Part shown: positions 4,012 through 28,596 of the stretch, one piece after another
Layout: each line of letters starts with the position of its first letter
Position numbering within the stretch: the stretch's first letter is position 1
Source of the DNA: Candidatus Woesearchaeota archaeon
Lineage (GTDB): Archaea > Nanobdellota > Nanobdellia > Woesearchaeales > J110
Direction: 5' to 3'
Length of the DNA stretch: 48,431 nucleotides
NCBI GenBank assembly: GCA_003694805.1
Contig: RFJU01000038.1
Span: 1-48,431, forward strand
The notes under the pieces: generated by a model
The model's input: only the letters and a program-made list of their open reading frames with translations
Told to the model about the DNA's origin: nothing
The model's database searches: none
Program-made: the position numbers and the translations under genes

Positions 4012-4038
4012 ACCAACCGCGAGGCAAGTCACCCACCA

Positions 4039-4046
4039 TTTATAAA
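4039..4046 (-). promoter_or_regulatory. TATA box (TTTATAAA) for SRP54
   Basis: Centred ~31 nt upstream of the ATG at 4011. Confidence 0.6.
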
Positions 4047-4263
4047 TATTCACTGAAACCCGCCACGAACAGCCCCCCCTTCAACAAAAAAAATTCCTCT
4101 TTCGTTCCTGCGGTTCGCCTCAACCAAATAGCACAGTATTTAAAAAAAACAAGAACACCCTCTTCAGAGGAAGACGCATAGACGCTAAGAGAACAAGCGC
4201 GTACTTAAAAAAAAAACAAAAACTACCAAACAAAACAAAACACGACAACTGAGACGAAGAGCA

Positions 4264-4776: not shown

Positions 4777-4871
4777 ACACGTTCCACCCGCGAAGCACGG
4801 TGCGGAAAGCCAAGACGAGACTATAAAAAAACCAGGAAGAACTGCATTGCACAACACGTGTTGAAAAGAAG

Positions 4872-4944
4872 CGCCTCCGCCCGGATTCGAACCGGGGACC
4901 TTTCGGTTAACAGCCGAATGCTCTAGCCGCTAAGCTACGGAGGC
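4872..4944 (-). tRNA. tRNA-Asn (anticodon GTT)
   Basis: Manual cloverleaf: GCCTCCG/TA/GCTT-AGCGGCTA-GAGC/A/TTCGG-CTGTTAA-CCGAA/AGGTC/CCCGG-TTCGAAT-CCGGG/CGGAGGC/G. No encoded CCA. Confidence 0.9.
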
Positions 4945-5150: not shown

Positions 5151-7064
5151 TCACGAAGGACGCAGGTACGCACCCATGTACTTTATGAGGTAATACAAGC
5201 GAGTAATATCATAGTACACAAGCTCGCGCTGCGCCTCCGTCAAAGGATGATACAAATTCAAAATAGTAAGGTAGTGCCGCTTTGCTGGACCAATCCTTCC
5301 GAACTGCAAGGCAACGTACGTATTCACCAGCTCATACCGGATACGCTCAACCGCACTCGCACCCGCCGGGGCCTCCAACTCCTGCACTTCACGGCGCACC
5401 TCATCAAGCGTGTACTCCGCCGTTGAAACAATCAACGTCCTAAACTCTTCCAAGACGCACTTCAACACAAGCGGCAAATTCCCTGAACGCTTCTCAAGAC
5501 CGGCAACCCTTCGCTCAAACAAGACAAGAAACTGCTTCAACGACTCTGGCACCGACGCCTTCTTCACCGCCTCCAAGAAATCTTCACGGGTAAAATCCTC
5601 CTCCAAATCCAGCGCGAAAAAGAGGTACTTCCTCGCCGCTTCAAACAAGCGTCCAGCATTATGGCTGAGCTGATCGATTTCACGCTCCAGCGCCCGTACC
5701 GCCTTCAACAATTGTTCCTTCTCCTCCTTGGACAGCAAGAACACCTTCGACCGCCTCCCCGAAACCCACCATCCAAGCAAAGCCAGCCATTGGCGAATCT
5801 TCCTGCGAAACAAAACATAGAACACCAGCAGAAACAAAAGAAGAACGAACAACACAAAGAGAGCAGTGGTGAAAAAACCCTCTGTTGGCTGTACCGGCTG
5901 AGGAAACTCAAGAAGAAGGCAGGGCGCACAAGGACCGCCACAATCCACGCCGATCTCCCCGCCATTCTGAACGCCATCATCACAGGTCGGCACGTATTCG
6001 CAAACACGCTCCGTGAACGGCTTGAGCACCTCAGAACCGCAAGCGTTCTTGTCATCGCACGACCTGAACTGCTTGTTCTCTGGCGTGCACGGGCCCCAAT
6101 CAGTGCAGGACCAGTCTTCTTCACACTCGCCCGCACCATACACACACGCCCCTTTCAAGTAGCGCTCCACCTCGCACTCGTTCATGTCAATGCAGCGGCG
6201 CCACCTCGTCCCGTTCGGGAGGCAGGGAAGCCAATCGAGACAGTTCCATTCAGGATTGCACAAAGCACCTCCGCCACCTCCGCCGCCACCTCCACCACTA
6301 CTACCACTACTGCCACCAGACGAGGCCTGCTGGGTGCACACAACCTGAACAGAAACCACGTTACTGTCTGCACTTAAGTTATACGGGTCCCACGCGGTGA
6401 ACACGACAGGGTACACCTTTGCATCGCCCGTGCACGCGGGATGGGAGTAGCGAACCTCTGAAGAATTAAAAATAGTGACAGAAAGGTCCGGACTGTACGC
6501 CACGGTATACGTGAGCGGATCGCCATCGTAGTCTGCAAAGTAATCATCCAAGAAATACGCTGACAGCGACGTCCCCCCATCAAGCGTCACGTTGGGCACC
6601 GGCACTGCAAGGTAAGGAGGATCATTGATGTTCGACACATTAAAGCGGTACGTGTCGTTCACCACGCTGTTCGAGCAACCAGCGCCGTCGTCGCCAAAAA
6701 TAATTGCCGTGTGATTCCCCACATGCGTCGCGTTCAGCGTCACATTAATAACACCCGACGAAGAAATGGTAAACACTGTCACGTTCGTGACGAACGAAGA
6801 CGTGAACGTCAACGTCGCATTCTCAGGGTCGGACCCGTTCACAACACAAAAAAGAAAATCTCCCTGATCAAACGTCGTATTGCACGGGATCGTTATTGAA
6901 GGAGGATAATTAATACATAAGCGCGCCTCTCCTTGCGCTTCGACCGCCTTCCCAGCCACGTGCACGTGCGTGAAAAAAATAAGGAGCGCTGACTGGAGGA
7001 CAATCATCACGCAGAAGAGCACGACCAAACCATTCACGAATCTCTGTGACTCATCCTTTTGCAT
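5151..7064 (-). CDS. type I-like membrane surface protein (637 aa) with cadherin-like Ig domains, Gly10 linker, Trp/Cys-rich repeats, TM helix and a helical cytoplasmic tail
   Basis: 'FLDDYFADYDGDPLTYTV' cadherin-like motif; G10 at aa 273-282; repeats 'EWNCLDWLPC..RWRRCIDMNEC' and 'DWSCTDWGPC..QFRSCDDKNAC'; TM 'FFTTALFVLFVLLLFLLVFYVLF'. Start set to the ATG at 7064 because a TATA box (7089-7098) lies inside the longer ORF. Confidence 0.8.
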   Translation of the reverse strand: MQKDESQRFVNGLVVLFCVMIVLQSALLIFFTHVHVAGKAVEAQGEARLCINYPPSITIPCNTTFDQGDFLFCVVNGSDPENATLTFTSSFVTNVTVFTISSSGVINVTLNATHVGNHTAIIFGDDGAGCSNSVVNDTYRFNVSNINDPPYLAVPVPNVTLDGGTSLSAYFLDDYFADYDGDPLTYTVAYSPDLSVTIFNSSEVRYSHPACTGDAKVYPVVFTAWDPYNLSADSNVVSVQVVCTQQASSGGSSGSSGGGGGGGGGGALCNPEWNCLDWLPCLPNGTRWRRCIDMNECEVERYLKGACVYGAGECEEDWSCTDWGPCTPENKQFRSCDDKNACGSEVLKPFTERVCEYVPTCDDGVQNGGEIGVDCGGPCAPCLLLEFPQPVQPTEGFFTTALFVLFVLLLFLLVFYVLFRRKIRQWLALLGWWVSGRRSKVFLLSKEEKEQLLKAVRALEREIDQLSHNAGRLFEAARKYLFFALDLEEDFTREDFLEAVKKASVPESLKQFLVLFERRVAGLEKRSGNLPLVLKCVLEEFRTLIVSTAEYTLDEVRREVQELEAPAGASAVERIRYELVNTYVALQFGRIGPAKRHYLTILNLYHPLTEAQRELVYYDITRLYYLIKYMGAYLRPS

Positions 7065-7088
7065 CCTGCCTATTCCCCGCCCCTGAAC

Positions 7089-7098
7089 ATATTTAAAT
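7089..7098 (-). promoter_or_regulatory. TATA box (ATTTAAATAT) for the 637-aa protein gene
   Basis: Centred ~30 nt upstream of the ATG at 7064. Confidence 0.55.
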
Positions 7099-7133
7099 CT
7101 ACCTCCTTTCACCCCTCTTCAGAGAAGCCACTC

Positions 7134-7158: not shown

Positions 7159-8454
7159 TCATCCTGACTTTTTCTTGCGAAAGAAAAGCACGTACACATT
7201 AAGCAAGACAAGCAGGAACAGCACAAGGTACGCGACGCCTAAAGGGGATGCCAGTACTCCGAACACGCCGCCCGCGCGCTCTTCCTTTGGCGGCTCGACG
7301 ACAGAGAACAACACATCCGACGTTGAGGTCTTATTCGCGTAGAAGAGCATGATCGTCGCGGGGTACTCGCCTACTTCAAGCCCGCGCGTATTCCAATACG
7401 TCGTGAGCACTCCGCGAGAAAAACCTTGCAGCGTTATCAATGGCGTCCTTATCACCTCGCCAGCAACGCGCACTTCTGCAAACACATCCCCAATATTCCC
7501 CTTCCAGTCACTCTCAACAATGATATCGAGCTGGTTAATCACTCCTTTCCGAAACACGCGCGTGTAGTTCACAACACGAACGTCGAGCTCGCCAACGCGA
7601 AACGACGCAGAAAGGGGCAGCGACAGCCCATCATAGAAGAGCAGGGCGGACGCGTGATAAGACCCTTTCTTCAGGTCTTTCGTCGGAATCGTAGCGGTTA
7701 GCGTTGTGCTCTTCGTTGCCGGAAGCGAAACACGGTCCGTCTCGAACGACCCTACCGCTTCCCCCTCAGGACCTGTCACGTTAATAATAGCAAAGAGGCG
7801 GACAATATGACTCAGCGTCCAGCTCTCCACCTGCACCCGCGCCTCGGCGGGCTCGCCCTGATTCACGCTGGAAACCTGCAAACTCGCCTTCACCGCTTTC
7901 TCAGGACCGAGGACGCGCGTAATAAACCCTGTTCTCACCGTGGCAAGAGCCGCAATCTGCACTGTCTGCTCGGGAGGAAGCTCCGCGGCGGCGATGAACG
8001 TCTTATACTGTCCCGGCTCCAAGCCGGGAGGATGAGTAATGTGCACGGTCACCTTGCGCGGACCACCATCAGGGGACGGGTCGTCAATCACGACGTTCTC
8101 ACTCAACGCACCCTGGGCATACACGCTTATCCTCGGCGCATCCTCCACGGCGAGCTCGAAGGTAAACGTCTTGCCCGGCTCGTAGAGGAGCGTTCGCTGT
8201 TCTAAGGGCAAGCTCGTAATCTTCACCGCCGCTGCGGGTGCCGCCGCGCCCGCGACGAAGAACAACACGAGCAGCGCGGCCACTGCAAACAAAGGAAACC
8301 CGCGGCGAGAAAAACGCGAAAGGAGAAAACGCAGACACGCCAGCGAGGACACCAACCAGGACACCAACCAGGAAACACCGTGAAGGAGATAAAACAACCG
8401 ACAAAAAGGAACGAATTCAGGGTCCTTGAAGTAATTGGCGTGCATGAGCCGCAT
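7159..8454 (-). CDS. Ig/CARDB-like repeat membrane protein (431 aa), paralogue of the 450-aa protein; C-terminal TM plus basic tail
   Basis: Shares 'ESDWKGNIGDV..EVRV' and 'YWNTRGLEVGEYPATIMLFY' with 9685-11037. C-terminal 'AYLVLFLLVLLNVYVLFFRKKKSG'. Start set to the ATG at 8454, preceded by GTGAGGAGGAG; the TTG at 8484 is an alternative. Confidence 0.75.
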   Translation of the reverse strand: MRLMHANYFKDPEFVPFCRLFYLLHGVSWLVSWLVSSLACLRFLLSRFSRRGFPLFAVAALLVLFFVAGAAAPAAAVKITSLPLEQRTLLYEPGKTFTFELAVEDAPRISVYAQGALSENVVIDDPSPDGGPRKVTVHITHPPGLEPGQYKTFIAAAELPPEQTVQIAALATVRTGFITRVLGPEKAVKASLQVSSVNQGEPAEARVQVESWTLSHIVRLFAIINVTGPEGEAVGSFETDRVSLPATKSTTLTATIPTKDLKKGSYHASALLFYDGLSLPLSASFRVGELDVRVVNYTRVFRKGVINQLDIIVESDWKGNIGDVFAEVRVAGEVIRTPLITLQGFSRGVLTTYWNTRGLEVGEYPATIMLFYANKTSTSDVLFSVVEPPKEERAGGVFGVLASPLGVAYLVLFLLVLLNVYVLFFRKKKSG

Positions 8455-8492
8455 TCTCCTCCTCACACGTGCCCCTTTCACCAAGCCCTGCT

Positions 8493-9128
8493 TTACGTGT
8501 CGTCACACACCGCTTCAATCGTCGCCTGGTGCGCTCCTGCATCAATCTCCTGCGAGAAATTCACTAACACCACAAACTTCATGGAGTCAGCAGTTTCCGG
8601 CGAGTACTGAAACGACGTGGAGCCACAATACACCGTACCGGGCTTGCTCGTGTTCACATCAACGAAAGCAGTATTCGTCAAGTTGCCGCAACTCCCAGAC
8701 TCGTTGTCAAGACCGGCAATTTGGAACTGAGGAGACGTGCTCCCTGACAGGAACTGCGCCGCTGTCGCGTTCGAGTTCACATACACCGTCGCGTTCACAT
8801 TCCCATTATTCTCCAAAATAAAGTCCTGACTGGGAGAGCTCAACCCTCCAGAACAACCACTGCCCGTCGTGCCGTTGCTCGTCATGTAACAACGCTGCCC
8901 TCCAGCAACGTACCCGGACCCGAAATCAACGAGATTGAACGAGCCGAACGTGCAACCGACCGAAGTCGTGACGGTCAGCGTGACATTCCCTGTTTGGTTG
9001 CTCGTCGCAGCCCCGGTCGGGGGGCCGGCAAACCGCTCCACTTGATTCAAGCTAAAAAACGTTCCGAAAAGGGATATCAACATCGCCGCGATCAGCAACA
9101 AGCCCAATGTTTTATTTGACACGTCCAT
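8493..9128 (-). CDS. secreted 211-aa beta-rich protein; candidate fibre subunit, similar to the C-terminal domain of the giant protein
   Basis: N-terminal hydrophobic segment 'LGLLLIAAMLISLFGTFF'. Mature part aligns by eye with giant aa ~3680-3818. SD GGGGAGTGAT lies upstream of the ATG at 9128. Confidence 0.75.
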   Translation of the reverse strand: MDVSNKTLGLLLIAAMLISLFGTFFSLNQVERFAGPPTGAATSNQTGNVTLTVTTSVGCTFGSFNLVDFGSGYVAGGQRCYMTSNGTTGSGCSGGLSSPSQDFILENNGNVNATVYVNSNATAAQFLSGSTSPQFQIAGLDNESGSCGNLTNTAFVDVNTSKPGTVYCGSTSFQYSPETADSMKFVVLVNFSQEIDAGAHQATIEAVCDDT

Positions 9129-9134
9129 TCTTCA

Positions 9135-9365
9135 TCACTCCCCACTTGGTTTTTCAATAGTCAACACCACCTCACCTGTCGGCGGCTTTTGAATCGTCAA
9201 CGCAACTTCTCCTCTCGCGACAGGGCTTACCCCTCCTGGTTGGGCCTGCCTTGCCGCCTTGATTTGCCCAAGCTCGTACGTCACCGTCATGACGCCAAGC
9301 ACGGAAATGAGCAGGGTCAAAAGAACCAAGACAAGAATCGTTCTTCTCGAGATGTCTTCGGCCAT
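9135..9365 (-). CDS. 76-aa membrane-anchored mini-protein with two tandem 'GEV[AV]LTI[QE]KP' repeats
   Basis: TM 'ILVLVLLTLLISVLGVMTV'. Tandem 12-aa repeat at the C-terminus. TATA 9388-9397 is centred ~28 nt upstream of the ATG at 9365. Six-nt gap to the next gene. Confidence 0.6.
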   Translation of the reverse strand: MAEDISRRTILVLVLLTLLISVLGVMTVTYELGQIKAARQAQPGGVSPVARGEVALTIQKPPTGEVVLTIEKPSGE

Positions 9366-9387
9366 GTGCATCTTCTTCGAATACCGC

Positions 9388-9397
9388 CTATTTAAAC
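9388..9397 (-). promoter_or_regulatory. TATA box (GTTTAAATAG on minus) for the 76-aa/211-aa/431-aa operon
   Basis: Position relative to the ATG at 9365. Confidence 0.55.
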
Positions 9398-9554
9398 TTT
9401 TCTATTGACCATTATAAAGTCACAACGTCACAAAGGTTGCACAACAACACCCACGCCAAGAACCCGGCAGGCGCGGACGAACAACGGCGAGCAAAGCTTT
9501 GAAAAGAACAGAAAGGAAAACAAAGCACACCTCATCGAACAAACAGTTCACCTA

Positions 9555-9586
9555 GTCAACGACCAAGTCAACGAGGGCATCAACGA
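9555..9586. repeat. three phased copies (period 12) of [GA]TCAACGA
   Basis: gtcaacga at 9555-9562, gtcaacga at 9567-9574, atcaacga at 9579-9586, all within the 313-nt non-coding gap between the two surface operons. Confidence 0.6.
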
Positions 9587-9619
9587 CTCGCAAGAGCAAA
9601 CCGAAGGAACAAAAGTCAT

Positions 9620-9627
9620 AAAAAAAA
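9620..9627 (-). terminator. oligo-T (T8 on minus) terminator after the giant-protein operon
   Basis: A8 on the plus strand, ~60 nt downstream of the 450-aa gene stop (9685-9687). Confidence 0.5.
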
Positions 9628-9684
9628 TCCCTTACAAAGGAACAAAATAAGCGTGCAGGCCTCTTCAGGGCTCTCCGATCCCGG

Positions 9685-11037
9685 CTACTTCTTTCTTCGG
9701 ATGGAGAAGAAGAGCACAATATTCATCACGATAAGCACAGCAACCAGCAAGACCAACACGTTGTACGACGATCCCCCCTTCTCTTCCACGCCAACCACGC
9801 GGCCGGAAACGCCACCTCCCTTCACCACCGCCTCATCAAGGGAGAGAACGGTCTCAAACAGCCTGCTTGAAGAAGCGCCATCATAGAGCAAATCCAGATT
9901 CACATCGTACTCGCCCGGCACGAGGCCCTGCGTATCCCAATACGCCGTGACAACTTCTTCCTTGTGCGGCCGAACCCTGGTCGGGACCGTGCTAAACGTG
10001 CTCAACTCAGAACCCGAATCATCAATGACGTTCACCTCCCCCTCCACGTTCTCAATCGGCTCGTTCCAATCACTCTCCACCGTAAAGTCAAGCTTCGCAA
10101 TCTCCCCAAGACGAAAGGAACGAATATCCAAACCTTTAATCCTGATGAACTTCCTCCCAATCGTGAACGCCTCGCCAAGCTTCTCCACCTCATCACTGTA
10201 CTCCAAAAACACCTCAGCGTAGTACGCTCCTGGGTTGTGCTTCCCCTCCCACGAAGCAACAACTTTTCCTTCCTCCTTCGCGTCAAGCGAAATCATATTC
10301 GAACGCAACTCCACAATCTCCTCATTGTTCGCTCCAAGAATGCGAACGCGAGCGTACGCGTCTTCAATCCGTTCCGTCCCAAAATTAAACACGGAAATCG
10401 TGAACACAACAGGACTGTCCACCCCTCCCTCAGACACGTGCAGCTTTGCCTTCGCATACGTTCCCGGGTACGGAACGTTCACAATAATTTGGCTTGCAAC
10501 ACCGGCCGTCGCCGTCACTTGCGACGTCTCCGTCCTCGTGTTGAACAACAACCCCTGATCCTGCGTCAAAACAAAAACACCCTCTTCGTCAAAGTAATCC
10601 TCCGGGACGTGAAGCAACACCACCTTTCCAACGTGTTGCCCTGGCGAAGGCGCCTCATCAGGCAAACGGACCTTGACGGTGAACGTCTTCTCCCCCTCGT
10701 CCTGAGAGAGCGCAATGAGCGGCTTCTCAATGCGGATGCTGTCTTTGAGCTCTCCTTCTGCAAATATGATAGCATGAAAGTCCACTTTATCGTTGTTAAT
10801 GACGCGGTACGTCAGCTCCTTCTCAAGACCGGGAGCGAAGTCAATACGCGTCCTCGCCGGCGCGATCCCAAGCGCTAACGCGTCCTCAGCCACGGCGCAG
10901 AAGAGCAGCGCTGATAGCAAGACAAGAAGTGCGAACGCCCCCAGCCGACGATCCAGCCGACGAGCTACCAACACCGAGCGCGCCCCCGCGCGCCTTACAC
11001 GTTCCTTCCTTGTTCTTTCACCAATCATTGCCTTCAC
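9685..11037 (-). CDS. Ig/CARDB-like repeat membrane protein (450 aa), paralogue of the 431-aa protein; signal peptide plus C-terminal TM and basic tail
   Basis: 'ESDWNEPIENVEGEVNV', 'YWDTQGLVPGEYDVNLDLLY', C-terminal 'YNVLVLLVAVLIVMNIVLFFSIRRKK'. GTG start overlaps the giant gene stop (GTGA); the ATG at 11028 is an alternative. Confidence 0.8.
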   Translation of the reverse strand: MKAMIGERTRKERVRRAGARSVLVARRLDRRLGAFALLVLLSALLFCAVAEDALALGIAPARTRIDFAPGLEKELTYRVINNDKVDFHAIIFAEGELKDSIRIEKPLIALSQDEGEKTFTVKVRLPDEAPSPGQHVGKVVLLHVPEDYFDEEGVFVLTQDQGLLFNTRTETSQVTATAGVASQIIVNVPYPGTYAKAKLHVSEGGVDSPVVFTISVFNFGTERIEDAYARVRILGANNEEIVELRSNMISLDAKEEGKVVASWEGKHNPGAYYAEVFLEYSDEVEKLGEAFTIGRKFIRIKGLDIRSFRLGEIAKLDFTVESDWNEPIENVEGEVNVIDDSGSELSTFSTVPTRVRPHKEEVVTAYWDTQGLVPGEYDVNLDLLYDGASSSRLFETVLSLDEAVVKGGGVSGRVVGVEEKGGSSYNVLVLLVAVLIVMNIVLFFSIRRKK

Positions 11038-14000
11038 GACACCGGATACTCCGCAATGATAAACAACTGGCTTTGCTTTGCCCCGCCCGGTTCGTTGAGC
11101 GGCACTTCCACTCTGAACTCAACCTCGCCCTCATCACCTGCATCAACATACGAGAGGTTCTTGAGCACGAGCACACTCTCATTAGACACGTTCGTCCATG
11201 ACGTCGCCGACGACCCCCACACAAAGCTCCCCGCCTCGGACGAGTTCCCCGCGGCGAACTGGAAATAACTCGTATTCAGCCCAACAGCATCCCACAAGCC
11301 ATCAGAGGCGCGGAGAGAAACATCTGCCACGACGTTCCCGTCATTCCTCACGCCAAAGGGCAAAGGATTGTCATCGGTCGTGTCGTTGCTCTCCAGCACG
11401 TTCATCGAACCAAAGTTCGTCTCTGCATTCGTCAAGGTAATAATAACAGAGGACTGAATAGTGAAGTTAAAGATGGACGCCCACGCACTGCACCCTTCAT
11501 CGTCACACGCCTGCACCGTCCAATTATACACTCTATCCACGCACAACTCTTCAGTCGTGTAGTTCGACTCGGAAAGGTTCGAGTACTGGTAGCTCGGGCA
11601 GACTGACTGGTTAATACTCAAGTTATACGAGAGCGTGTCCCCGTCGGCGTCGCTCGACGTCCAATTCAGATTCACGTTGCGCTCAAAAATGGACGTGTTG
11701 CCATTGGAGGGATACAGGAGTGTCGGAACATCAGGAAGAGTGTTTTGGATCGTGACGTTGTTGCTCTTTTTCTCCAAAGAGTAGAGTTCCCCATCATACC
11801 CTGTGACGTTGCACCACCACACCTCTCCTTTTGTCGTGTTCCCCGCCCCGAGAGTGAACACGTTCTCCTCGCCGCTCGTTGCTGAAACGCTTCCTGAAAC
11901 GTTTGCGACACCATCCTTATACCACGTATAATTAATCCACAACCCTGATCCAAGACCATCGTCTGTCACGTTGACGGTGCAGTTCAAGTCGTCTGTCGTG
12001 TAGGGAGCGAGCGGCGTGACGTTCACGTACACCACCTGCGGCGCCTGGTTCGTGAGGGATCCGTTACAAAAATACGTACATAAAAACGCAGGGGATGAAT
12101 TATCGCACCAATCACCGCTCCACGTATTCGAGTCGCCGTCGAACACGTCGTAGGCACCTCCGGACCCGCAAAACACGTTGGACGCCATTGACGATCCTGA
12201 ATCGGCCGATGTGGCAAAGCGAATAGCTGAGGTGAGCGAGGAGGAAACGTTGTTGTTCTCAATAGTGTGCCCGGTCGACGTCCCGCTCACGTTAATGCCT
12301 ACGTCGAAGTCGAGGATTGTGCAGTTTTTGATAGTGTACCCATCTGCTTCGGAAAGGTTGAACGCTACACTCCCTGCCGAGTCGTTTCCTTGCACAACAC
12401 CGCCCCCGCAGTCAATGTATGTTTGCTCGTTCTGATCACCCGAGTCAAAACCCACAACGGAGCCGTTTACGAAAATGGAAATGTTGACGAATCGGTTTTG
12501 CGTGTTGATCGTTCCCTCTTCAATATCAACACCGGAGCTTCCCGACCCCGCAATAGTAACTTTGGTGAAGTTGTTTGAGGAGGTCCCGTCCTGCAGCAAC
12601 ACCCCGCTCGTCGAAAACGTCTGGCCGAATTGCTCGATAGATACGTTCACAAAGCGAGACTCCTTCACGAGGGATAGGTCAAGCCCTGCTCTATTGACGT
12701 TTTGAATGGACACATTCTCAACAAGAACACCGGTCAACGAACTTGAAAACCCTGTCACTATAACTCCTTCATCCCAACCGCGTATGATGCAATTCGAAAC
12801 CGTCGTTTTCGAAGCTCGATAGATTGAAACACCATCGCCAAAGGCAGACGCACCCGTCAAAGTTCTTCCTCCACAATCGAAGCGGTTGTTGCTCCCGCCA
12901 TCAAGTTCTACCCCTGAAGAGGTAGTAAGCCCGACAGAGACGGACGTGTTGACGAACTGATTGTTCGACGATGGGTTGCCTGAGGTGCCGACCTTTATTC
13001 CTTTTGCATCGACTGTTACGTTCACTTCGGAGAAGTTGTTGTTTGATGAAAGAGAAACAATCTCGAGTGCATACTCACTGCTAGAGCCCACGATGTCAAG
13101 ATTGCTGACCGTGTTTTGCCCCGACGAGGAAAAACTAACACCTTTTGCAAGAGAAGCTCCAGTCATGTTCACGTCGATCAAGGAGTAGGTGTTTTTGTTC
13201 GATGATGCGCTTTGCAGCGCGACTGACGCGTGCGAAGTCAGCGTCAGGTTCTGAAAGGTGCTGTTCTCCGAAGACGTCACGAACACCCCAGTGCTAAAGT
13301 TCGATACAACGCAATTTTTCACCGACACGTTGTCATACCCGTTCGTCGTCACGCCATACCCGACATCCTCCCCTATGATAGCGTAGCCGGCACAGTCCAG
13401 CACGATGTTGTCCGCGCCAAACGTGATGCATGTGTTATTAAATGTGAAGTTTCTCGTCATCGTCACATCAGACGTGATTGTGTCACAGCCCTGCTCGATT
13501 GTTCTCGAGGTTGAATTCACGGCGCTCCCAACATCCGTCTGGTCCCTGGGCGTGACTTGACAGAGCCAGGACTCGCCCAATGCCGTGTTCGTGTATGACA
13601 AGGTCACCGACTCCTCCGTCCCGTTCGTCACCTGCACTTCCGAACTTGAGAAGTACGCACCGTCACGAAACCACGACACGTTGGCCAACACAACGTCGTT
13701 AGGATCAGCGTCTTCAATGATGAACGAACAGTTCAAATCCTCATGCGTCATTGGCGAGGCAGGCAGAAGGGTCACGCTCGTCACGTTGGGCACGTTGTTC
13801 GCCACGGGGGTTCCGTCGCACAAGTAAGAACACCACGCCCACCCCGCGCGCGAGTCGCAGGAGTTGTTCGTCCACGTGTTCGAGTCCGCGTCGTACGCGT
13901 CGTACGCCCCTCCTGAACCGCAGAAATAATTGTTCGAGAAGGTTGACGACGTCACAGAGCTCACACTCACATTCACGCCTTCCTGAACCGACGATGATAC

Positions 14001-17000
14001 GTTATTCTCCTCGACAACACTCCCTGAACTCGTCCCCTCAAAGAACACGCCTTTTCCGAAGTCCTTCACCGTGCAGTTGCGCAGCGTCACGTCGTCGGCC
14101 GAGGAAACGCGCACGCCAAACGAGGAGGCGTCATCGTTGCCTGAAAGAACGCCCCCGCCGCAATCAATCTTGTTCGTGTCCGATGTTTCATCGCTCACAT
14201 ACACCGCAGCATACGCGCCCGTCAAGGAAATGGAAAAGTCTGTTACGTTGTTGCTTGAGGAACTCGCGAAAAAGACTCCGTTCCCGCTGAGGCTGGAGAG
14301 CGCAAAGGACGAGATTGCTGACGACGTGACGCTCGATAAGTAATACCCGTTCGCGCTCGAGCTGACATTCACGTTTGTAAACGTGTTGCCTGAAGAACTC
14401 GCCGCGTACACGCCCCGTGAGAAGTCAGTGATGGAGCAGTTCCCCACGGTTGTGCCGTCAGCGCTGGAGAGGTACACGCCGTACGTCCCGCCCGTGTCGC
14501 TTCCGTCGATAGTGCCTCCTTGGCAGTTGAAAACATTATTGTCGTGCAACTCTCCGTCCACGTACACGCCGTGGTGGCTCGCCCCCGACACGCTCACGGA
14601 CAACCCTGTGACTTTGTTGCTCGTACTCGCCGAAGCGCCGGAAACGTAAACGCCGGCATCCGTCACGGATCCTCCCTGGACCGTCAAGGAGGAAAGGTTG
14701 TTTGACGAAGCGCCTTCGAGCCACACGCCGTAGAGGTCCGCATCGTTCACCGACACGTCACTGATGACTGACTGCGAAGAACCACTCAAGTAAACACCAA
14801 CGTCGGACGCATTCACTGTCAAGGAAGACACTTGCGTCCCAGACCCCGCACCTGCGTAGACGCCATAGGTGAAGTTCACCACGGTGCAGTTCACAATACT
14901 CGTGGATGACGCATCGTTGAGGTAAAACCCGCCGATCGCGTTGGCAGAGCTCGGCGTTGAAACAACACCCCCCTGACAGTCAATAACGTTCGTAGCACTT
15001 CCCTGTGCGTCATTGAAAAACACACCATAATACGCAGCCGGATTGGCCAAAGCCCACGAAATGTTTACTCCCTCAAACCTGTTTGACACTCCCCCGCCCG
15101 ACCCGAAACGAATCCCGTACTCCGTGTCAGCATCCCCCTGAACGACGATCTGAGAAAAATTGTTTGCTGAAGCGCCGTCTCGGAAGAGGATGCTGGCCTT
15201 CGAAGAATTTATCACGGTAATGGTCGTGAACACGTTGCTCTTCGCACCGCCGAGAACATCAACGCCTCTCGTGTTCGAAACGACAGTGACGTTCTCCACC
15301 ACGCTCTGGTTCGTCCCGTCAAGCCACACTCCGCTCGTGAAATCAGAAATCACACAATGAGCAACGGAGATGTTCACCTTTCCCGACGCGTTAACCCCCC
15401 TCGTGAGGGGAGAATCGTCACTGTCAATAGTATGCCCTGCGCAATCCAACGCTATGCTGTCCGCGCCAAACGTGATGCACGAAGCTCCCGGACTGCTCAA
15501 GTCTGTTGAAAGCATTGAGTCGTTATAAATCGTTCCGCACCCCGAAATGTTCTGCCAGATGTGAGATGCGCTGGAGTTGAGAGATGATCCGGTGGCGTAC
15601 CCGTCGCTCGGCGTCACTTGGCAGAGCCAATCCTCTCCTGCACCCGTGTTCGCTGCCGGGAGTGCGACGTCTTTTCTCGTATTGTTTAAGACAGCATACA
15701 CCCCGCTCGAAAAGAGCGTTCCGTCCTTGAACCAAGACACGTTCGCCGAGAGGGAGTCGCCCGTGTTCGGATCGGTCACGATGAACGAACAGTTCAAATC
15801 CTGCGTATGATACGCCTTGGCAGGAAGAAGCGAAACCGACGCAACCGTCGGTGCCGTGTCGGTAACCGTGACCGTGTTCGACTGGTTCTCTGACGAATAA
15901 TTCGTGCCGTCAAACCCTGTGACGTTACAGTACCATTGCTCCCCGTACGTCGTGTTCCCCGCCCCCAAGATGAGCGAGTACGCCGTCCCGTTCGTCACGC
16001 TAACCTGGCCTGAACTATACAGGGCGCCGTCACGCACCCAGGTGTAATTCGCCCAGAGGCCGCCGCCGCCACCGTCATCAACAATAGTGAACGTGCAGTT
16101 CAAGTCCGACGCGTTCTCAGGCACGGCCGGTGTCAAAGCCAAACTCTCCACCGAAGGCGGCTGGTTCGTACCGACAAACAACGAACCCTGCTCGCTCACC
16201 ACGCCATACCCTCCTTTTCGGCACGTGATGTTATACGTTACTACGCCGCTTGACGAGAACGAGAAGTTACGCTCCCACTGCTGCGCCGACGCGTTCCACG
16301 TCAAGTTCACACTCGTACCGTTCGAAAAGTCCACCCTGCAAAAGTCCACCACGCCGAACACGCCCGCTTCTGACACGCCCGTCCCGGAAGAAACAGCCAA
16401 GAACTCTGCAACGCCGTCGCCGTCCCAGTCTTCAACGTCAAGCGAACGCTTCGCATCCAACGTGTTCACGTCGCTCGCGAGCGGGTAGGAAAACGACGCA
16501 TTCATCACAAACGACCCATCATCAATAAGCCACGCCGTATTATCCCCTCCCGCCGCGAGAACCTCATCCACGCTGTCCAAGTCAACATCAAACACCTCCA
16601 CGGACGCGACGTAGCCGCTTCCGCTCTTGCTCAACGACCACAACACATCCCCCGACTCATCCACCGCGACGAGCTTGCTCGTCCCGTTCTGGGCGAACAC
16701 GTCATCAACATAGCCGTCACCATCAAAGTCGCCGGCGCCCATCTCCCACCCCACACCGACCGACACGTTCCACAGGCTCACGCCATCCTTATCAAAAGCA
16801 CGCAAAAGCCCCGCGGTGACGTCGTGCGCGACGATATCGCTCCTCCTCCCGTCGTTGTCAATATCCACAATAGCAACTGCGCGGAACTCATTGGACACGT
16901 TCCAGAGTACATCGCCCGACGCGTTCATGACAAGCAAGTAATTAGCAGTCGCTGATACGAGCTCGTCGCCGGGCCATTGGTCAGAGATGTCCCACGCTTT

Positions 17001-20000
17001 GACCTCGTTGGGCGTTCCCAGCGACGCGGAAACGTCAAACATTTTCGTCCATGACGAGCCGTTCGTCGTTGCCGCACCTGCACGCCCCGTTGATCGAAGG
17101 GACGCGTAGTCATCACGGTACGTCCCGCCGTCAAGGTCCGCTAAGACTGCCGACAAAATGCCGCGGAACGAGAGCAGCTCAACCTGCGAGCCCGAGCCGT
17201 TCACGACCTTGAACTGATCAACCACTGTTGTGTACGCAAAATCATCCACGCCGTCCCGATCAAAATCGCCACGCTCAAGACCGCCAATATAATTTGAAGC
17301 ATTCCACCGGTTGCTTCCTGACGCGTTATACGCTATCAGATTCCGAACGCCCGATGTCAAGTCGCCAATGACAAAGCCGTCCCGCGTCTTCGTGTGCGAC
17401 GAGCTCCAAAAGAGCGCGTCGTGCGCTTCGTGCGTAAAGTTTTGAAAAAACAGCTTCCTCCCGAGTGTCTCATTGTTCTGTCCGAGGAAGTCCGCCGCGA
17501 AGAGCACTGACTCGTTCACGTCAGCACTCGACGGCGTCTTGTCAACAATGGAAGCAGTCAGGGAGGATATCGTCACCGCGGAACTGTTCTGCGAAACATT
17601 CACAAACCCATTATCAGCAGTCACTTCACACTTCCACGACTCACCCGGCGCCGTCCATCGCCGGTCAATGCCAAGCCTGCTGGTAGCGAGCGTTCCCTGC
17701 ACAGAAGCATTCATCAGCCACGATTCGCGAGAACGCGAGAAGATCGTCCAATTCGCAGCGCTTCTATCCCGCCACCAACGCACCAGAACAGTGATGTTCG
17801 CGCCGTCTGACTGGGACACGTTGAACTCGCAAGAGAGAGAATCATTCGCGTACGGCGACGCTGGCGTGATGTTCACGCTGTCAAACACGGGCTGCGGGCC
17901 GCTGTGCACGGTCACGCTCCTTTGCTCTGTTTCATTCGTGTTCCCGCTCGCGTCGATCGCGTACGCCTTGAACGTATACGTCCCATTCACGAGGCCGGTA
18001 AAGTTATGCCTGTACGGGTAGGCACTCGCGTTCCACGACGCGTTGATTTCTTCAGGAGCGAGCACGCGATTATAGAGCTGCACCTCATCAAGAGACCCGT
18101 TGAGGCCCTTGCTCGTATCAGAACGGTACGCGCCAAGCACCAAGGGCTCCGTGTCCGCCGCGACGGACCAGTCAATCCCGATCTGCTCGGAGCCGAGGAA
18201 GACGCCGTTCTTGTAAAACTGCACTTCAGAACTATTGAACACAATACCCATGAAGACAGGCTGGCCTGCTGAGAAGAACCCTGCCTGCCCTGAGGAAACC
18301 CACTCCGCCGAGGCGTTGCTGAACGAAACATCCAAGTCCCCGTTCGTGCGGGCAATAACGTACCAGCCGCCTGTTCCGTTCTGGCCGTTGCTCACTACGA
18401 CATCATCGGTCGCCGTCGGGTTCCACTCAACCCACGCGAGAAGCGAGCCCTCCTCCCCGACGCGGTACTGCGAAGCGTTTGAACAATCAAGCCGCGCCGA
18501 GCCGTCAAACACCCGCTTGCCACCCCGCTGGCCCATAGGCGACCACGACGACCCATAATCAGTGCATGCTTGCTCATAGGAAGACTCCTCCGTCACATCC
18601 GCGCCGCTCGTGAACTGCATCCACAACGCTAAGGTGCTGTTCCAATCAACCAAGACCGAATGGTCGCTTGCGTCGCTGGAGGAAACATTGACATAAACCG
18701 CCGTGCTCGCCTGCGTCCCCCCCGTAGGCGTGGGCGACACGAAGGAAATGGAAGGCGCGACCGTTTCTGCAACAATAACTGTCGTGCTCGACTGATTCTC
18801 AGAGGAGTACTCAGTTCCATCATACCCTGTGACGTTGCACCACCACTGCTCCCCTATTGACGTATTCCCCGCCCCGAGGATGACTGACGAAGCCGTCCCG
18901 TTCGTCACACTGACCTGGCCGGACACGTTCTTCACACCATCAACGAACCACGTATAATTAGCGAAAAGCGTATCCCCCACGTCTTCATCCGTAATGACAA
19001 AGGTGCAGTTGAGGTCCTGCGACGCATTCGCAATGGCAGGGGACAGACTCAGAGAAGCAACCACCGGTGCGTTGTTGTTGCGCACCCCCGCGCACGTCCA
19101 ATAACAAATCGAACCAGGGCTCCCCGCGTCGCAGGAGTTGTTCGTCCACGTGTTCGAGTCCGCATCGTACGCGTCGTACGCCCCAGACGAGTTGCAAAAG
19201 AAGTTGTTCTCAAGCACGCCGCCAGAGCTCCCGATGTCGGCAATGTTCATGCCGTACCCCGTGCTTGACGAAACATTATTCCCCCGAATACTCGCTCCCG
19301 TCGCGCTCGTGGAGAGGTAGATGCCATCGGCGAAATCCGTGATGGTGCAGTTCCCAATAGTGATGCCGTCAGCACTACTAACGCGCACGCCGTTCGATCC
19401 CGACGAGTCGTCGCCGTCAATGAAGCCGCCCGCGCAGTCAAAATAGTTGTTATCGCTCGCGTCATTATTGACCAGGATGCCGTAATGGTTCGCCCCGTTT
19501 ATGGTAATGTTGAAGTTCACGAAGGAATTGTTCGCGTTCCCGCCCGTCTGAAGACGAATGCCAACATCTCCCACGGCCCCGCCGTCAATCCTGACATTGG
19601 TAAAGTTGTTTCGGTTCGATCCGGTCGTGAAGCTCACCAGCTCAATACCGTACAACGCGTTGCGGTCTGCCGTGATATCGTCAAAGACGCTGTCCGTCAC
19701 TTTACGAACATACAACCCGTCTTGGCTGTTGTCGCTCGCGACGATGCCGGACAGGTTCAACCCGTTCGCGTTGTAGAGGTAGAACCCGTGGTTCGTGTTT
19801 CCCGACGCGTTGATTGACTGCATAGCAATATTGTTTTCGCTGTCGACATAGATGCCGTGCGTGTTACTCGTGGCGGTGAGGTTAACGAGAAGCGAGTCCT
19901 GAGACGGCACAACCCCCCGCTCAAAGTCCTTGACGATGCAGTTCTGCACCGTGCTCACCCCGCCGAACGCTACGTAAAACCCTCTCGTCCCGGCAGTGTC

Positions 20001-22490: not shown

Positions 22491-22701
22491 GCTCCACCTC
22501 CTCCCTTTTCTTTTTCATCCGGTGATACACGGTCCACACGGTGCGGTCATCACGGTTGAGCAGCTCGGCAATTTGTGCAAAGGTCAAACCACGCTCTTCC
22601 TTGAGGAATGCAACGAGCGACTCCATGACAGAAAATGTTCTGTCGCGAAAAATAAATGAGGGGATGTTAAGGCTCTTGTCTGCAAAGAGCCTGCGCTTCA
22701 T
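22474..22701 (-). CDS. small helix-turn-helix DNA-binding protein (75 aa), first gene of the giant-protein operon
   Basis: 'LTFAQIAELLNRDDRTVWTVYHRMKKK' is an HTH-like segment. Its 3' end overlaps the giant ORF start by 17 nt and contains that gene's SD. Start chosen at the ATG at 22701 (uncertain). Confidence 0.6.
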   Translation of the reverse strand: MKRRLFADKSLNIPSFIFRDRTFSVMESLVAFLKEERGLTFAQIAELLNRDDRTVWTVYHRMKKKREEVERDAEA

Positions 22702-23258
22702 CGGCAACCCTCCACGCACCCTTCGTTCATGGGTGCACTTCGAAAGAAGAAGAACACGTACTTGCACACGTTCGGGCATAACGCTCGCTGGCGTGCTTGC
22801 TGAGGGAGGAAAGAAAAGAAACTTGCAAAGAAACGAGCAGAGAAACGAGCAAACCCTGTTGCTTCTCTCCCTTCTTTCTGCGCCTTTCTCGACTCTTCCG
22901 AGCCAACAACTGCTTGTGTCATCGCTGTCGTGATCACCACACCATCATTCCTCGTCCCTGCCTGCTTACCTGCTGTGCGATAGCTGAACTGAATTCTTGC
23001 TTGTCTTCGTTGCTGCGTGAGGCGTCCTTGCTGTGACGTTCCTGCAGCGTTGGTTGCTGGGCTTCAATGCAAACCAACCCACCAGTTCAGAGCGATCTGG
23101 ACGCTTGCCTTTTTTGTCCGGCAACCTGTACACGCAGTAGTGCAAAGCTCGTACAAGCCCAACACAACATACTCACATTGTAAGGGTTCTTTATATACCT
23201 TTTTATTGTGAATTCCTTCACATGCTCGGAAAGCGCCCCAAACCCCCTTAGAAGAGAA

Positions 23259-23879: not shown

Positions 23880-24104
23880 ATGAAGAACATCAACATCACA
23901 CTTCCCGACGACCTCCATCACCAACTCAAACTCCTCTCTGTTCTCAAAGGAACCACCCTCAAAGCACTCATCACCACCACCCTCTCTGAAACACTCTCTG
24001 AAACGCAAGAACAACAACCCCATATCAAGACCCACACCGCAGGCCGACAACAACCCGCCAGACAACACCCACACCACCCCCTTGATAAGAAAAAAACACC
24101 ATGA
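23880..24104 (+). CDS. ribbon-helix-helix (CopG/Arc-like) protein, copy 2 (74 aa)
   Basis: 'MKNINITLPDDLHHQLKLLSVLKGTTLKALITTTL'. Stop overlaps the next start (ATGA at 24101-24104). Confidence 0.65.
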   Translation: MKNINITLPDDLHHQLKLLSVLKGTTLKALITTTLSETLSETQEQQPHIKTHTAGRQQPARQHPHHPLDKKKTP

Positions 24105-27975: not shown

Positions 27976-28596
27976 CTACAGCGCCCTAATCCTCCTGTAC
28001 GCCTCTGCAAGCTCAGGATAGAGCCGCTTTCTCCTCTCCTCAGATGCCTGCTCATAATACCCAATAAGCTCCTTGTACAACCGCTTCGCCTCAGCCTCAT
28101 CCGCAAGCCTGATCTTCTCACGCAACACCTTCAACCGCTCCTCTAACTGCCTCGCATTCTCATCCACCGCATCATCCAGCGAGCTTGACTCCCGCTTCTT
28201 CCACTTGAAGCGGAGCAGGCGCTTCAAAAACGAAACACGTTCCTCCTCCTCACCGACGAGAACGTCCACCACCTTTTCGAACTCGCGCAGCGACCGCTTC
28301 AAAGCGTCAACGCTGAACTCTTCACTCCCGACCTCAAAGGATTCCATCAACTCTAAAAAACTCAAAACCTGATTGCGCACGTCATTGGTCAAGTACACCT
28401 TCTCAAGCTCTTCCCTCAACTCCGCCGCCGTGAACTCGTAGCGCTTCTGCAAGAACTCCTGAAAAAAATATTTGAAAAGCCGATACACCTCCTCTTCTGT
28501 GACGTGACCTTTCTCCAGCAAATTCTGAATCTTCTTCCTCACCGATCTTTTCAGCTCAAGCTGCGACTGAACCGGATGCTCACCTCTTTCCACCAT
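27976..28596 (-). CDS. cytoplasmic helical protein (206 aa), homologous to the cytoplasmic tail of the 637-aa membrane protein
   Basis: 'YEFTAAELREEL' and 'AKRLYKELIGYYEQASEERRKRLYPELAEAYRRI' align with 'EDFTREDFLEAV' and 'AKRHYLTILNLYHPLTEAQRELVYYDITRLYYLI' in 5151-7064. Confidence 0.65.
   Translation of the reverse strand: MVERGEHPVQSQLELKRSVRKKIQNLLEKGHVTEEEVYRLFKYFFQEFLQKRYEFTAAELREELEKVYLTNDVRNQVLSFLELMESFEVGSEEFSVDALKRSLREFEKVVDVLVGEEEERVSFLKRLLRFKWKKRESSSLDDAVDENARQLEERLKVLREKIRLADEAEAKRLYKELIGYYEQASEERRKRLYPELAEAYRRIRAL

Follow-up and report, generated by a model that had tools for sequence, protein, structure and literature searches.

A giant archaeal surface protein ends in a relative of a small secreted protein encoded in the same conserved gene cluster

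In the WxL/Csc clusters of bacteria a small one-domain protein is encoded together with a large, often β-helical adhesin that ends in the same domain. Adjoining these genes is a partner that consists of a signal peptide, two Ig-like domains and a C-terminal transmembrane (TM) helix, a strand of which is predicted to complete the sandwich (PMC10599100, PMC9772566); in the bacterial clusters this strand is predicted to come from a DUF916-DUF3324-TM protein and to complete the WxL β-sandwich (PMC10599100). The archaeal locus described here has the same layout. It differs in its host, as WxL domains have been reported exclusively from bacteria, and in having no dual W-x-L motif, no match to the WxL model and no peptidoglycan. 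Its partner is some 50-100 aa longer than the WxL-interacting protein (WxLIP), which suggests an extra Ig-like domain, and comes as two cognate paralogues. Beyond the WxL/Csc inventory the locus has three further conserved genes, encoding a strand-only protein (p78), a single-domain protein of ~140 aa and p653; moreover, a conserved helix at the N-terminus and a free strand set its small protein apart, and its large protein reaches 3800-4500 aa.

A second described system that the locus resembles is that of the chaperone-usher pili, in which the C-terminal pilin domain of the adhesin (FimH, PapG, CsuE) is a paralogue of the fibre subunit (FimA, PapA, CsuA/B) without a donor strand of its own, the subunit has an N-terminal extension with alternating hydrophobic residues, and an Ig-domain helper is encoded alongside. 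These pilins are also the best structural neighbours of the models of both our proteins. However, there is no sequence similarity, the TM-scores are 0.3-0.53 and polymerisation in the archaeal system is putative. It has no PapD-like chaperone, usher, outer membrane or periplasm (the Pfam families of PapD-like chaperones and outer-membrane ushers were absent from all cluster and window genes), and its helper is membrane-anchored and present twice.

Glycosylated β-sandwich subunits with an N-terminal donor strand also build chaperone-free filaments, such as the threads of Sulfolobus, the bundling pili of Pyrobaculum and the haloarchaea, and TasA of Bacillus. The Pyrodictium cannulae (CanA) likewise consist of secreted, heavily glycosylated β-sandwich subunits with an N-terminal donor strand, and CanA appeared in our Foldseek lists. 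The chaperone-free filaments have no detectable sequence relationship to the small-protein family, and we know of none that has been described with a giant bearing the subunit domain, a membrane-anchored Ig partner or a strand-only protein. Specifically for TasA/camelysin (Peptidase_M73), no Pfam or NCBIfam match was found in the small family and no signal peptidase gene in the cluster; the G-T-x-x-S-L-N stretch of the family we take to be loosely like SipW-type signals. The top Foldseek match of the small protein was TLP-1a (E 1.7e-3) of the environmental TLP-1a/b fibrils (CryoSeek, 9ikj/9ikk). The TLP-1 protomer is Ig-like, has ~230 aa, loses its signal peptide by cleavage and assembles by donor-strand exchange; its producer is unknown (PMC11494351). 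It is thought to be bacterial, the match has a TMq of just 0.41 and 12 % identity with no match at the sequence level, and neither Foldseek nor the PDB profile search gave evidence that places TLP-1 in the small-protein family.

The window, i.e. the whole stretch of 48,431 nt of Candidatus Woesearchaeota contig RFJU01000038.1 that was analysed, encodes a giant surface protein of 3818 aa (11034..22490; all features given here lie on the minus strand). It begins with a cytoplasmic stretch and a TM helix, followed by three right-handed β-helix blocks and a LamG domain (Pfam: Beta_helix, E 7.5e-49; NosD, 7.7e-35; Laminin_G_3, 1.9e-13). Further parts are a DxDGD-repeat region, propeller-like in appearance when judged by eye, and repeated Cys-containing Ig-like modules. 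An Fn3-like domain (11475..11738; weak Pfam fn3 match at aa 3603-3671) directly precedes the C-terminal pilin-like domain, and in orthologous giants the two are kept together, with 41 % identity in the alignment of the window, L010 and L007. The hydrophobic helix at aa ~43-63 (22302..22364), which follows a charged N-region of 42 aa, reads as a signal anchor or a long signal peptide, and the complete giant of locus L013 has the same N-terminal layout. The giant contains 161 N-glycosylation sequons, compared to a mean of 63.5 and a maximum of 84 in shuffled sequences; a 2.5-fold enrichment is found in both the giant and the small protein (10 sequons), whereas the partners p450 and p441 have 0 and 3. 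The start codon of the giant is overlapped by the 3' end of a gene for a 101-aa HTH protein (22474..22779; Pfam HTH_23, E 3.5e-5), possibly a co-transcribed regulator.

The preliminary description had proposed, from a hand alignment, that the C-terminus of the giant is a paralogue of the 211-aa protein encoded nearby. The region it named, 11037-11453, correctly corresponds to giant residues 3680-3818; by profile match the domain extends over aa ~3674-3814 (11049..11471). A chance resemblance of two sequences that are both rich in Asn, Ser, Thr and Gly could have been suspected, as pairwise BLASTP gave two co-linear HSPs without significance (E 0.11 and 0.97). Yet an HMM built from just five homologues of the small protein matched giant residues 3711-3808 (16.6 bits, E 1e-6), and the isolated C-terminal 178 aa scored 26.6 bits against a maximum of 11.0 among 2000 composition-preserving shuffles. 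With the 147-sequence family profile, hhalign matched the last 188 aa of the giant with a probability of 98.3 % (E 1.2e-14, 142 columns), and the family HMM matched the docking domain at E 1.4e-14. The giants of six other loci match the same profile (E 4e-7 to 5e-15), whereas a comparison with the neighbouring Ig-domain family, used as negative control, gave a probability of 3.6 %. Because of the shuffles and this control, both composition and generic Ig-fold similarity can be excluded, and with the hhalign result and the orthologous giants they refute a chance resemblance, to which we give practically no credence.

The alignment in detail bears out most of the earlier one. Four of the six blocks are paired by the profile as they had been by hand, but the first two (SVIITLTNAE/GNVTLTVTTS and TNFGSMNV/CTFGSFNL) are ~6-9 residues out of register: the profile pairs FNFTIQSS of the giant with VTLTVTTS of the small protein, and TNFGSMNV with VDFGSGYV. 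The Cys/Gly-rich insertion that had been noted in the small protein is present (the FG.G.V and ENxGN motifs are separated by 28 residues there and by 12 in the giant), and the small gene indeed lies close by, 1.9 kb from the part encoding the terminal domain. The giant's copy has neither this insertion nor the free N-terminal extension. Comparison of the AF2 models (pLDDT 92.1 for the small protein and 79.5 for the giant domain) revealed strands and a short helix in one-to-one order. Judged by these profiles, the kinship between the last ~140 residues of the giant and the small secreted protein, whose gene lies 2 kb from them, is real and ancient.

The small protein (8493..9128) has a conserved helix near its N-terminus (aa 5-33, 9030-9116), followed by a G-x-A site (aa 39-41), an N-terminal strand G47-x-V-x-L-x-V (8964-8990) and a pilin-like β-sandwich with conserved cysteines (aa 59-209, 8502-8954). 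It belongs to a large family of secreted archaeal proteins of ~210 aa, with 2063 representatives at E<=1e-3. The N-terminal extension is highly conserved throughout the family, with alternating hydrophobic residues (L51 99 %, I53 100 % hydrophobic), and its strand is unpaired in the AF2 monomer model; the corresponding position is occupied in the giant by the final strand of the Fn3-like domain. Upstream lies p78 (9135..9371; 78 aa, or 76 aa from the second ATG at 9365), which starts with D-I-S-R-R-T and a TM helix, the same conserved element as in the small protein, and then has the strand motif G-x-V-x-L-T-I twice (GEVALTI, GEVVLTI) and no globular domain. The alignment of the p78 family comprises sequences from eight loci. 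A Pfam search with p78 gave no match, and the HMM of the small-protein family covers its first ~57 positions (E 5e-7); this helix/strand region is the sole additional match of that HMM in the window, where no other β-sandwich domain was matched. In the 313-nt gap after p450 a TATA-box-like TTTAAATA (9389..9396) is found ~21 nt upstream of the p78 ATG, and a second TATA-like element, TTTATAAT, at 9411-9418. These elements suggest that the small-subunit module has a separate, putative promoter. The last conserved gene of the module, p653 (5151..7112), encodes a protein with an N-terminal TM helix, a cadherin/Big_9-like domain (weak Pfam matches to Big_9 and Cadherin_4), a Gly/Ser run, Cys-rich repeats, a second TM helix and a cytoplasmic helical domain; orthologues occupy the same position in L001 and L007.

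The giant gene and the small gene are each directly followed by a gene for one of two related partners, in which Ig-like domains lie between a signal peptide and a TM helix at the C-terminus. One, p450 (9685..11037; homologues P0154-P0162), belongs to a giant-associated clade of the partner tree; the other, p441 (7159..8484), belongs to a separate clade associated with the small subunit, and its true start probably lies downstream of the listed TTG. The GTG start of p450 overlaps the TGA of the giant (GTGA), with an alternative ATG 9 nt downstream. The partner alignment displays a hydrophobic N-terminal leader ending in A-x-G/A and, at the C-terminus, a hydrophobic stretch with Lys/Arg behind it; the middle and C-terminal regions are CARDB/DUF3324-like, and the hallmark layout of the WxLIPs (signal peptide, tandem Ig-like domains, C-terminal TM helix) is present. 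Twelve of the 21 members match WxLIP_HBD/DUF3324 (PF11797), all below threshold (best 27.5 bits, E 3.3e-6, against a GA of 28.9), with no such match for the window's own p450 and p441; WxLIP_PGBD/DUF916 (PF06030) is matched by just two of the 21 (best E 0.019). The DUF916 motif NQIDKxxxYFDLK was not found in the partner alignment, in which the N-terminal consensus reads G-I-x-P-x5-D-F-x-P-x-L. The preliminary description had overlooked the partners that matter most, the Ig/TM protein after each gene and the ~80-aa strand-only membrane protein.

In seven independent metagenomic or MAG loci of Woesearchaeota and Nanoarchaeota a large protein ends in the docking domain, so the pairing is kept, and the gene order is giant, partner, p78, small protein (one to three copies; one in the window), partner. 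The gene after the giant's stop encodes the signal-peptide/Ig-domain/TM protein of ~400-450 aa, mostly with an overlap (window, L010, L019 and L021; within a few nt in L013), and the ~80-aa TM protein of these loci has the strand motif of the small protein twice. The passenger domains vary (β-helix in the window, RCC1/LamG in L019), whereas the C-terminal domain is constant and always the very last one of otherwise differing giants. L001 and L002 contain the small-subunit module without a giant. Given the confirmed paralogy and the pairing in seven loci, it is plausible that the giant is physically linked to the assembly of the small protein.

The structural neighbours of both models are mostly subunits that exchange strands. 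For the small protein, Foldseek returned from the PDB TLP-1a, FimA/G/F, PapE and CanA, nearly all of them donor-strand-exchange subunits; for the giant domain the tip adhesin CsuE was best, followed by CsuA/B, FimA, PapA, the pilin domains of FimH and PapG, and CanA (CanA structures: 9h8b, 7uii). Chaperone-usher pilins dominate both lists (E 2e-3 to 0.4). The scores are weak, the best E-value for the giant domain being 2.2e-2, and the PDB profile search gave no sequence match to solved pilins or TLP-1. Indirect support for polymerisation of the small protein, which is plausible, comes from the pilin-like fold neighbours with their weak Foldseek scores and from the conserved strand that stays unpaired in the model of the monomer. 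The earlier proposal that the giant docks onto such a polymer thus stands as far as paralogy and pairing are concerned, and as a plausible idea with regard to the polymer.

Tentatively, and at somewhat less than even chances, we propose that the C-terminal domain of the giant is a pilin-like docking domain, that the small protein forms a strand-exchanged fibre and that the partners act as chaperone or anchor. After export of the small protein, a probable cleavage at the conserved T-G-[FY]-A site would expose the N-terminal strand G-x-[AV]-x-L-x-I to complete the β-sandwich of a neighbouring subunit. Such donor-strand exchange would build a short glycosylated fibre or stalk. The giant, as it shares the acceptor domain and has no free donor strand, would sit at the distal end, like the two-domain tip adhesins FimH, PapG and CsuE, which are plugged into the fibre by their C-terminal pilin domain; its β-helix, LamG and other passenger domains would do the binding. 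Either before assembly or after it, p450 may keep the giant's domain, and p441 that of the small subunit, at the surface of the membrane, as chaperone or anchor in a role likened to that of the WxL-interacting proteins, and p78 may supply membrane-tethered donor strands to the proximal subunit(s). Both docking by β-strand complementation and polymerisation are steps that we infer. What counts for a fibre is the homology and shared element order of the two domains, their donor-strand-exchange neighbours, the unpaired N-terminal strand and the make-up of p78 (a helix and, twice, the strand motif of the small protein), as well as the seven-locus gene order, the module without a giant, the two partner clades, the stop/start overlap, the sequon enrichment and the strand donation predicted for the analogous bacterial clusters. 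What counts against it is the N-terminal TM helix of the giant, which if uncleaved anchors the N-terminus and fits a tip position poorly, a dedicated, TM-anchored and translationally coupled p450 that fits a stable 1:1 anchor at least as well, the weak Foldseek scores and the single small-subunit gene in the window. The lack of any usher-like or ATPase component also counts against it.

The same observations can be explained by a platform without any polymer, in which p450 and p441 each bind their cognate domain 1:1 by inserting a strand into an incomplete sandwich and the giant adhesin is anchored by its C-terminus in a surface assembly, as proposed for the small-WxL/large-WxL/WxLIP clusters of the Lactobacillales and Bacillales. 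The cluster logic is shared, the partners have the DUF3324-like matches, the C-terminal TM helix and the two cognate clades described above, and the giant and p450 are tightly coupled. However, WxL (PF13731) was not among the Pfam families for P0001 or the giant C-terminus at E<=1, nor among the 25 families listed for the 147 small-family members at E<=0.1, and the family has just one semi-conserved Trp. The WxLIP matches are all sub-threshold, the DUF916 motif is absent, and to our knowledge DPANN archaea have no peptidoglycan to which a WxL domain could bind. Furthermore, p78, the free N-terminal strand and the tandem small paralogues are left unexplained, and the closest folds are those of pilins that polymerise. 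In architecture and gene order the seven loci do conform to the WxL type, as a likeness of layout and not as proof of homology. We consider the platform somewhat less likely than the fibre; with the dedicated Ig/TM partners and the strand-only membrane protein, a non-polymeric WxL-like docking complex is nearly as good an explanation.

It is improbable that the two domains are related but do not interact. In that case duplication or shuffling would have spread a common extracellular Ig-like module within a neighbourhood of surface-protein genes, and the small protein would be a plain membrane-tethered glycoprotein. β-Sandwich modules are plentiful in the window and 12 of the 147 family members weakly match the generic NPCBM_assoc/NEW3 Ig domain, but the HMM matches no further Ig-like domain there, the domain is always the last one, the same partner and small-subunit genes always adjoin it in the seven loci, and the cognate partner clades imply co-evolution. 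Less credible still is the idea that the small protein, with a short charged leader, a hydrophobic helix and a β-sandwich head, resembles archaeal type IV pilins and is put together by a type IV pilus machine with the helix as fibre core. Such a subunit would agree with the unusually conserved N-terminal helix ([ED]-I-S-N-K-T-L-A...; N5 97 %, S19 95 %, G22 90 %), with the AF2 model of a 29-residue helix followed by a β-sandwich, and with a [KR]-[TSA]-L loosely like a class III cleavage site. Position -1, however, is mostly Thr (66 %; Ser 14 %, Ala 10 %; consensus N-K-T-L-A), where a class III signal peptide has [KR][GA] before the hydrophobic helix, and a 25-residue linker with conserved motifs of its own separates helix and domain. 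Neither type IV pilins nor archaellins were among the Foldseek top 50 of the small protein, which returned donor-strand pilins. Genes for an ATPase, a platform protein or a prepilin peptidase are absent from the window and from every related locus, and the giant's domain copy has no such helix beside it.

The cluster is conserved in DPANN-type archaea and resembles the bacterial pilus and WxL surface-anchoring systems; it is a real and apparently undescribed archaeal version of a known kind of system. Because the homologous domains sit in a conserved pilus/WxL-like cluster, it is probably a device that fastens giant adhesins to tiny symbiotic cells, and in a DPANN episymbiont its likely use would be attachment to a host cell or a surface. 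More speculatively, and unlikely on present evidence, DPANN archaea could have a widespread unrecognised fibre pathway, in which small glycosylated pilin-like subunits polymerise by donor-strand exchange at the cytoplasmic membrane, aided by membrane-anchored Ig-domain chaperones, with interchangeable giant tip adhesins as caps and a strand-only anchor of 80 residues as tether. If so, this pathway would be an archaeal relative of the WxL clusters of the Firmicutes and, in its logic, of the chaperone-usher pili, and the fibre could be the structure by which episymbionts grip their hosts.

The C-terminal domain of the giant surface protein (3818 aa; 11034-22490, minus strand) and the neighbouring 211-aa secreted protein (8493-9128, minus strand) are linked by a specific homology that goes beyond composition or a generic fold. 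The preliminary description had aligned giant residues 3680-3818, encoded at 11037-11453, with the small protein by hand. Such an alignment proves nothing without profiles, because pairwise BLASTP of the two regions yielded only two co-linear HSPs, neither of them significant (E 0.11 and 0.97). Four homologues of the small protein are present in the word-indexed database, in which the last 151 aa of the giant found none. An exhaustive profile search collected 2063 cluster representatives of the small family at E<=1e-3, the best 150 of which are without exception stand-alone proteins, roughly 180-255 aa long. An HMM built from five small-protein sequences matches giant residues 3711-3808 (E 1e-6), and scored the isolated C-terminal 178 aa at 26.6 bits, whereas none of 2000 shuffles exceeded 11.0 bits. 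With hhalign, a 147-sequence alignment of the small family was matched to the last 188 residues of the giant with a probability of 98.3 % (E 1.2e-14; 142 aligned columns), pairing small-protein residues 48-210 with giant residues ~3673-3815.

A compositional artefact is rejected by the shuffles and by the probability of only 3.6 % that the small-family profile reached against the neighbouring Ig-domain family of membrane partners. The same low value, together with the silence of the HMM on every other β-sandwich domain of the window, rejects a general Ig-domain similarity. The AF2 models of the two proteins are confident (pLDDT 92.1 for the small protein, 79.5 for the last 173 aa of the giant) and alike in strand succession and in a short helix at the aligned positions. 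The paralogy proposed earlier is confirmed. Four of the six hand-aligned blocks agree with the profile alignment, whereas the first two are displaced by ~6-9 residues; the Cys/Gly-rich insertion described for the small protein is real.

No sequence match to the small family was found in Pfam or NCBIfam, or in the PDB by profile search. In its AF2 model an N-terminal helix of 29 residues is connected to a β-sandwich by a 25-residue linker. The N-terminus is conserved far beyond an ordinary signal peptide, with the motif [ED]-I-S-N-K-T-L-A followed by S19, G22 and T23. After the helix comes T38-G39-[FY]-A41, which may correspond to the small residues at -3 and -1 required by signal peptidase I. 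In the stretch G47-x-[AV]-x-L-x-I the hydrophobic positions alternate strictly, and this strand is unpaired in the monomer model. The small protein thus carries a conserved free N-terminal strand, and two such strands are present in p78, a 78-aa protein encoded at 9135-9371 (minus strand), which consists of the conserved N-terminal helix and two copies of the G-x-V-x-L-T-I motif separated by a Pro-rich linker, and of nothing else. Members of this ~80-aa family, for which Pfam gave no match, also occur in the related metagenomic or MAG loci L001 (3247-3486), L004 (199-447), L007 (2194-2454 and 3089-3319) and L010 (4794-5054), always encoded just 5' of a small-subunit gene and sometimes also 3' of it.

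In Foldseek searches the small-protein model matched TLP-1a, an environmental donor-strand-exchange fibril (PMC11494351), and then FimA/FimG/FimF/PapE and CanA of Pyrodictium. The giant domain matched the tip adhesin CsuE, CsuA/B, FimA, PapA, the pilin domains of FimH and PapG, and CanA. The scores are weak for both models (E 1.7e-3 to 0.4, TM 0.3-0.53), and the class of matches is consistent between these two independent models. A type IV pilin identity of the small protein was rejected on the Foldseek matches and the conservation of the N-terminal columns, and a TasA/camelysin identity on the lack of a Pfam or NCBIfam match.

The minus strand carries a series of tightly packed genes from the giant to a 653-aa ORF. 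The giant is followed by p450 (450 aa; 9685-11037), a gap of 313 nt, p78, the small protein, p441 (441 aa; 7159-8484) and p653 (5151-7112). A TATA-like box lies ~21 nt 5' of the p78 start and hints that the genes of the small-subunit module may be transcribed from their own promoter. At its 3' end, the gene of a helix-turn-helix protein of 101 aa (HTH_23 / sigma-70 region 4-like; 22474-22779, minus strand) overlaps the GTG start of the giant by 17 nt; this protein is possibly a dedicated regulator. Directly downstream of the cluster lie the ordinary housekeeping genes for tRNA-Asn (GTT; 4871-4944) and SRP54 (2662-4053), both on the minus strand.

For comparison, loci were collected via the small protein, the giant C-terminal region and p450 and annotated with an HMM of each component; further giants came to light via the partner gene and an alignment of three sequences. 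The orthologous loci retain the pairing: large ORFs ending in the pilin-like domain stand beside partner and small-protein genes in seven loci (the window, L007, L010, L012, L013, L019/L020 and L021/L022), with HMM E-values for the domain of 4e-7 to 5e-15. They include one complete 2669-aa protein and one of 4544 aa. The next gene after every such ORF is of the p450 type, its start usually overlapping the stop of the giant (GTGA in the window, ATGA in L010), so that the two genes are tightly coupled. Next in the conserved order stand the ~80-aa protein, small paralogues in one to three copies and a protein of the p441 type, and a p653-type protein closes it; some loci add another ~80-aa gene, along with single-domain proteins of ~140 aa that are related to the partner N-terminal domain. 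L001 and L002 contain the small-subunit module without a giant. By their records the loci belong to Woesearchaeota, Nanoarchaeota or archaeal MAGs left unclassified.

Between a signal peptide and a C-terminal TM helix, both partners, p450 and p441, carry Ig-like domains. In a neighbour-joining tree all seven giant-associated partners stand apart from all eight small-associated ones, so the giant and the small protein have cognate partner clades. WxLIP_HBD (DUF3324) is matched just below the Pfam threshold by 12 of the 21 family members, CARDB by seven and WxLIP_PGBD (DUF916) by two; a profile search of the PDB returned only two uncharacterised CARDB-like chains (E 0.015-0.03). A tblastn search of plasmids with a partner homologue gave no match, and a plasmid-borne WxL cluster is absent from a published account of Lactococcus garvieae. 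Several related loci (L004, 2468-2887; L001, 5369-5803; L007, 4460-4867 and 4855-5256), but not the window, encode proteins of ~135-145 aa that have a single domain and an N-terminal TM helix; at least that of L004 is homologous to the N-terminal domain of p450/p441 (E 3e-15). In the p653-type proteins (also L001, 6451-8403; L007, 5517-7382) a cadherin/Big_9-like ectodomain is accompanied by a poly-Gly/Ser stretch and several Cys-rich repeats of the CGGPCxxC type, together with a TM helix and a cytoplasmic helical domain of ~220 aa; such proteins could link the surface structure with the cytoplasm. A 1246-aa surface protein (24101-27841, plus strand) has Big_9, He_PIG and PKD repeats homologous to the p653 ectodomain, and in L007 a similar protein of 1219 aa is encoded after the module (7687-11346).

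In the giant itself Pfam identifies blocks of the right-handed β-helix/NosD type and a LamG domain; a DxDGD-repeat region looks propeller-like by eye, and Ig-like modules are numerous. Passenger domains vary among the giants (β-helix in the window, RCC1 and LamG in L019), and the Fn3-like and pilin-like C-terminus is constant. N-glycosylation sequons number 161 in the giant, against 63.5 expected from shuffles; the enrichment is ~2.5-fold both there and in the small protein (10 sequons), in sharp contrast to the Ig/TM partners, with 0 and 3 in ~450 aa each.

Among the other genes of the window, a set of PadR regulator, ABC ATPase, CARDB-domain protein and two MacB/FtsX permeases (32813-38297, plus strand) recurs directly beside the small-subunit module of L001 (8483-13293), with MarR replacing PadR; the module and this cluster are thus repeated neighbours. 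A Bat-like (MoxR-DUF58-VWA) operon (28504-31836, plus strand) encodes an AAA ATPase of the MoxR type, a DUF58 protein and a BatA/VWA protein. A glycogen metabolism cluster (39630-48264, minus strand) encodes glycogen synthase (PF05693, E 3e-157), an amylo-α-1,6-glucosidase-like protein (GDE_C), a GalT/HIT-like transferase, a GH57 enzyme and a GT4 glycosyltransferase.

We infer that the small protein and the Ig-like C-terminal domain of the giant would be joined by β-strand complementation; the giant domain would accept a strand while having none to donate, and would be the element by which the adhesin docks. We tentatively favour, at somewhat less than an even chance, a short fibre that is built of small subunits and carries the giant at its distal end, as in the two-domain tip adhesins of chaperone-usher pili; p450 and p441 would then be membrane-anchored chaperones or assembly sites, and p78 a membrane tether. 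The fold scores are weak, however, the giant itself has an N-terminal TM helix preceded by a charged segment of 42 aa, and its partner is one-to-one and TM-anchored. The main rival, somewhat less likely in our judgement, is a non-polymeric platform like that proposed for the Firmicute WxL clusters, in which AlphaFold predicts that a DUF916-DUF3324-TM hairpin completes the WxL sandwich (PMC10599100). The earlier reading, a giant incorporated into or docked onto a polymer of the small protein, is partly supported. The most far-reaching interpretation, a chaperone-assisted donor-strand fibre whose giant tip adhesins would serve host attachment throughout the DPANN archaea, is less likely than not.

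With the WxL/Csc clusters the archaeal locus shares its layout (a domain-only small protein, a large adhesin with the domain last, an SP-Ig-Ig-TM partner), but it lacks a WxL model match, the dual W-x-L motif and the DUF916 motif, and the DUF3324 matches of its partners are sub-threshold; WxL proteins have been described as exclusively bacterial (PMC9772566). Its domains appear to resemble chaperone-usher pili in fold and adhesin logic, but PapD-like chaperone, usher and outer membrane are missing. The donor-strand principle is common to the archaeal cannulae, threads and bundling pili, which are not known to have the giant adhesin, the partners or p78. Because of these differences we place the cluster in none of the three; it is best called a new archaeal variant that would work like them. 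We found no description of it in the literature on DPANN donor-strand systems and archaeal tip adhesins.

Most members of the DPANN archaea (Woesearchaeota, Nanoarchaeota and their relatives) are tiny episymbionts whose attachment to host cells is, to our knowledge, poorly understood. The cluster is a concrete candidate for this attachment. Through homology and conserved gene order, a family of small secreted proteins, comprising ~2000 sequence clusters without Pfam model or annotation, is now tied to interchangeable giant adhesins (1200-4500 residues) and two dedicated membrane partners, and the C-terminal domain together with the partner gene is a good marker for adhesins in fragmentary metagenomes. 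Two bacterial concepts, the WxL clusters and the pilus tip adhesins that share the pilin domain of the subunit, are linked to archaea, and these parallels suggest a common principle, in which a small, strand-complemented Ig-like domain fastens a very large adhesin to the cell.
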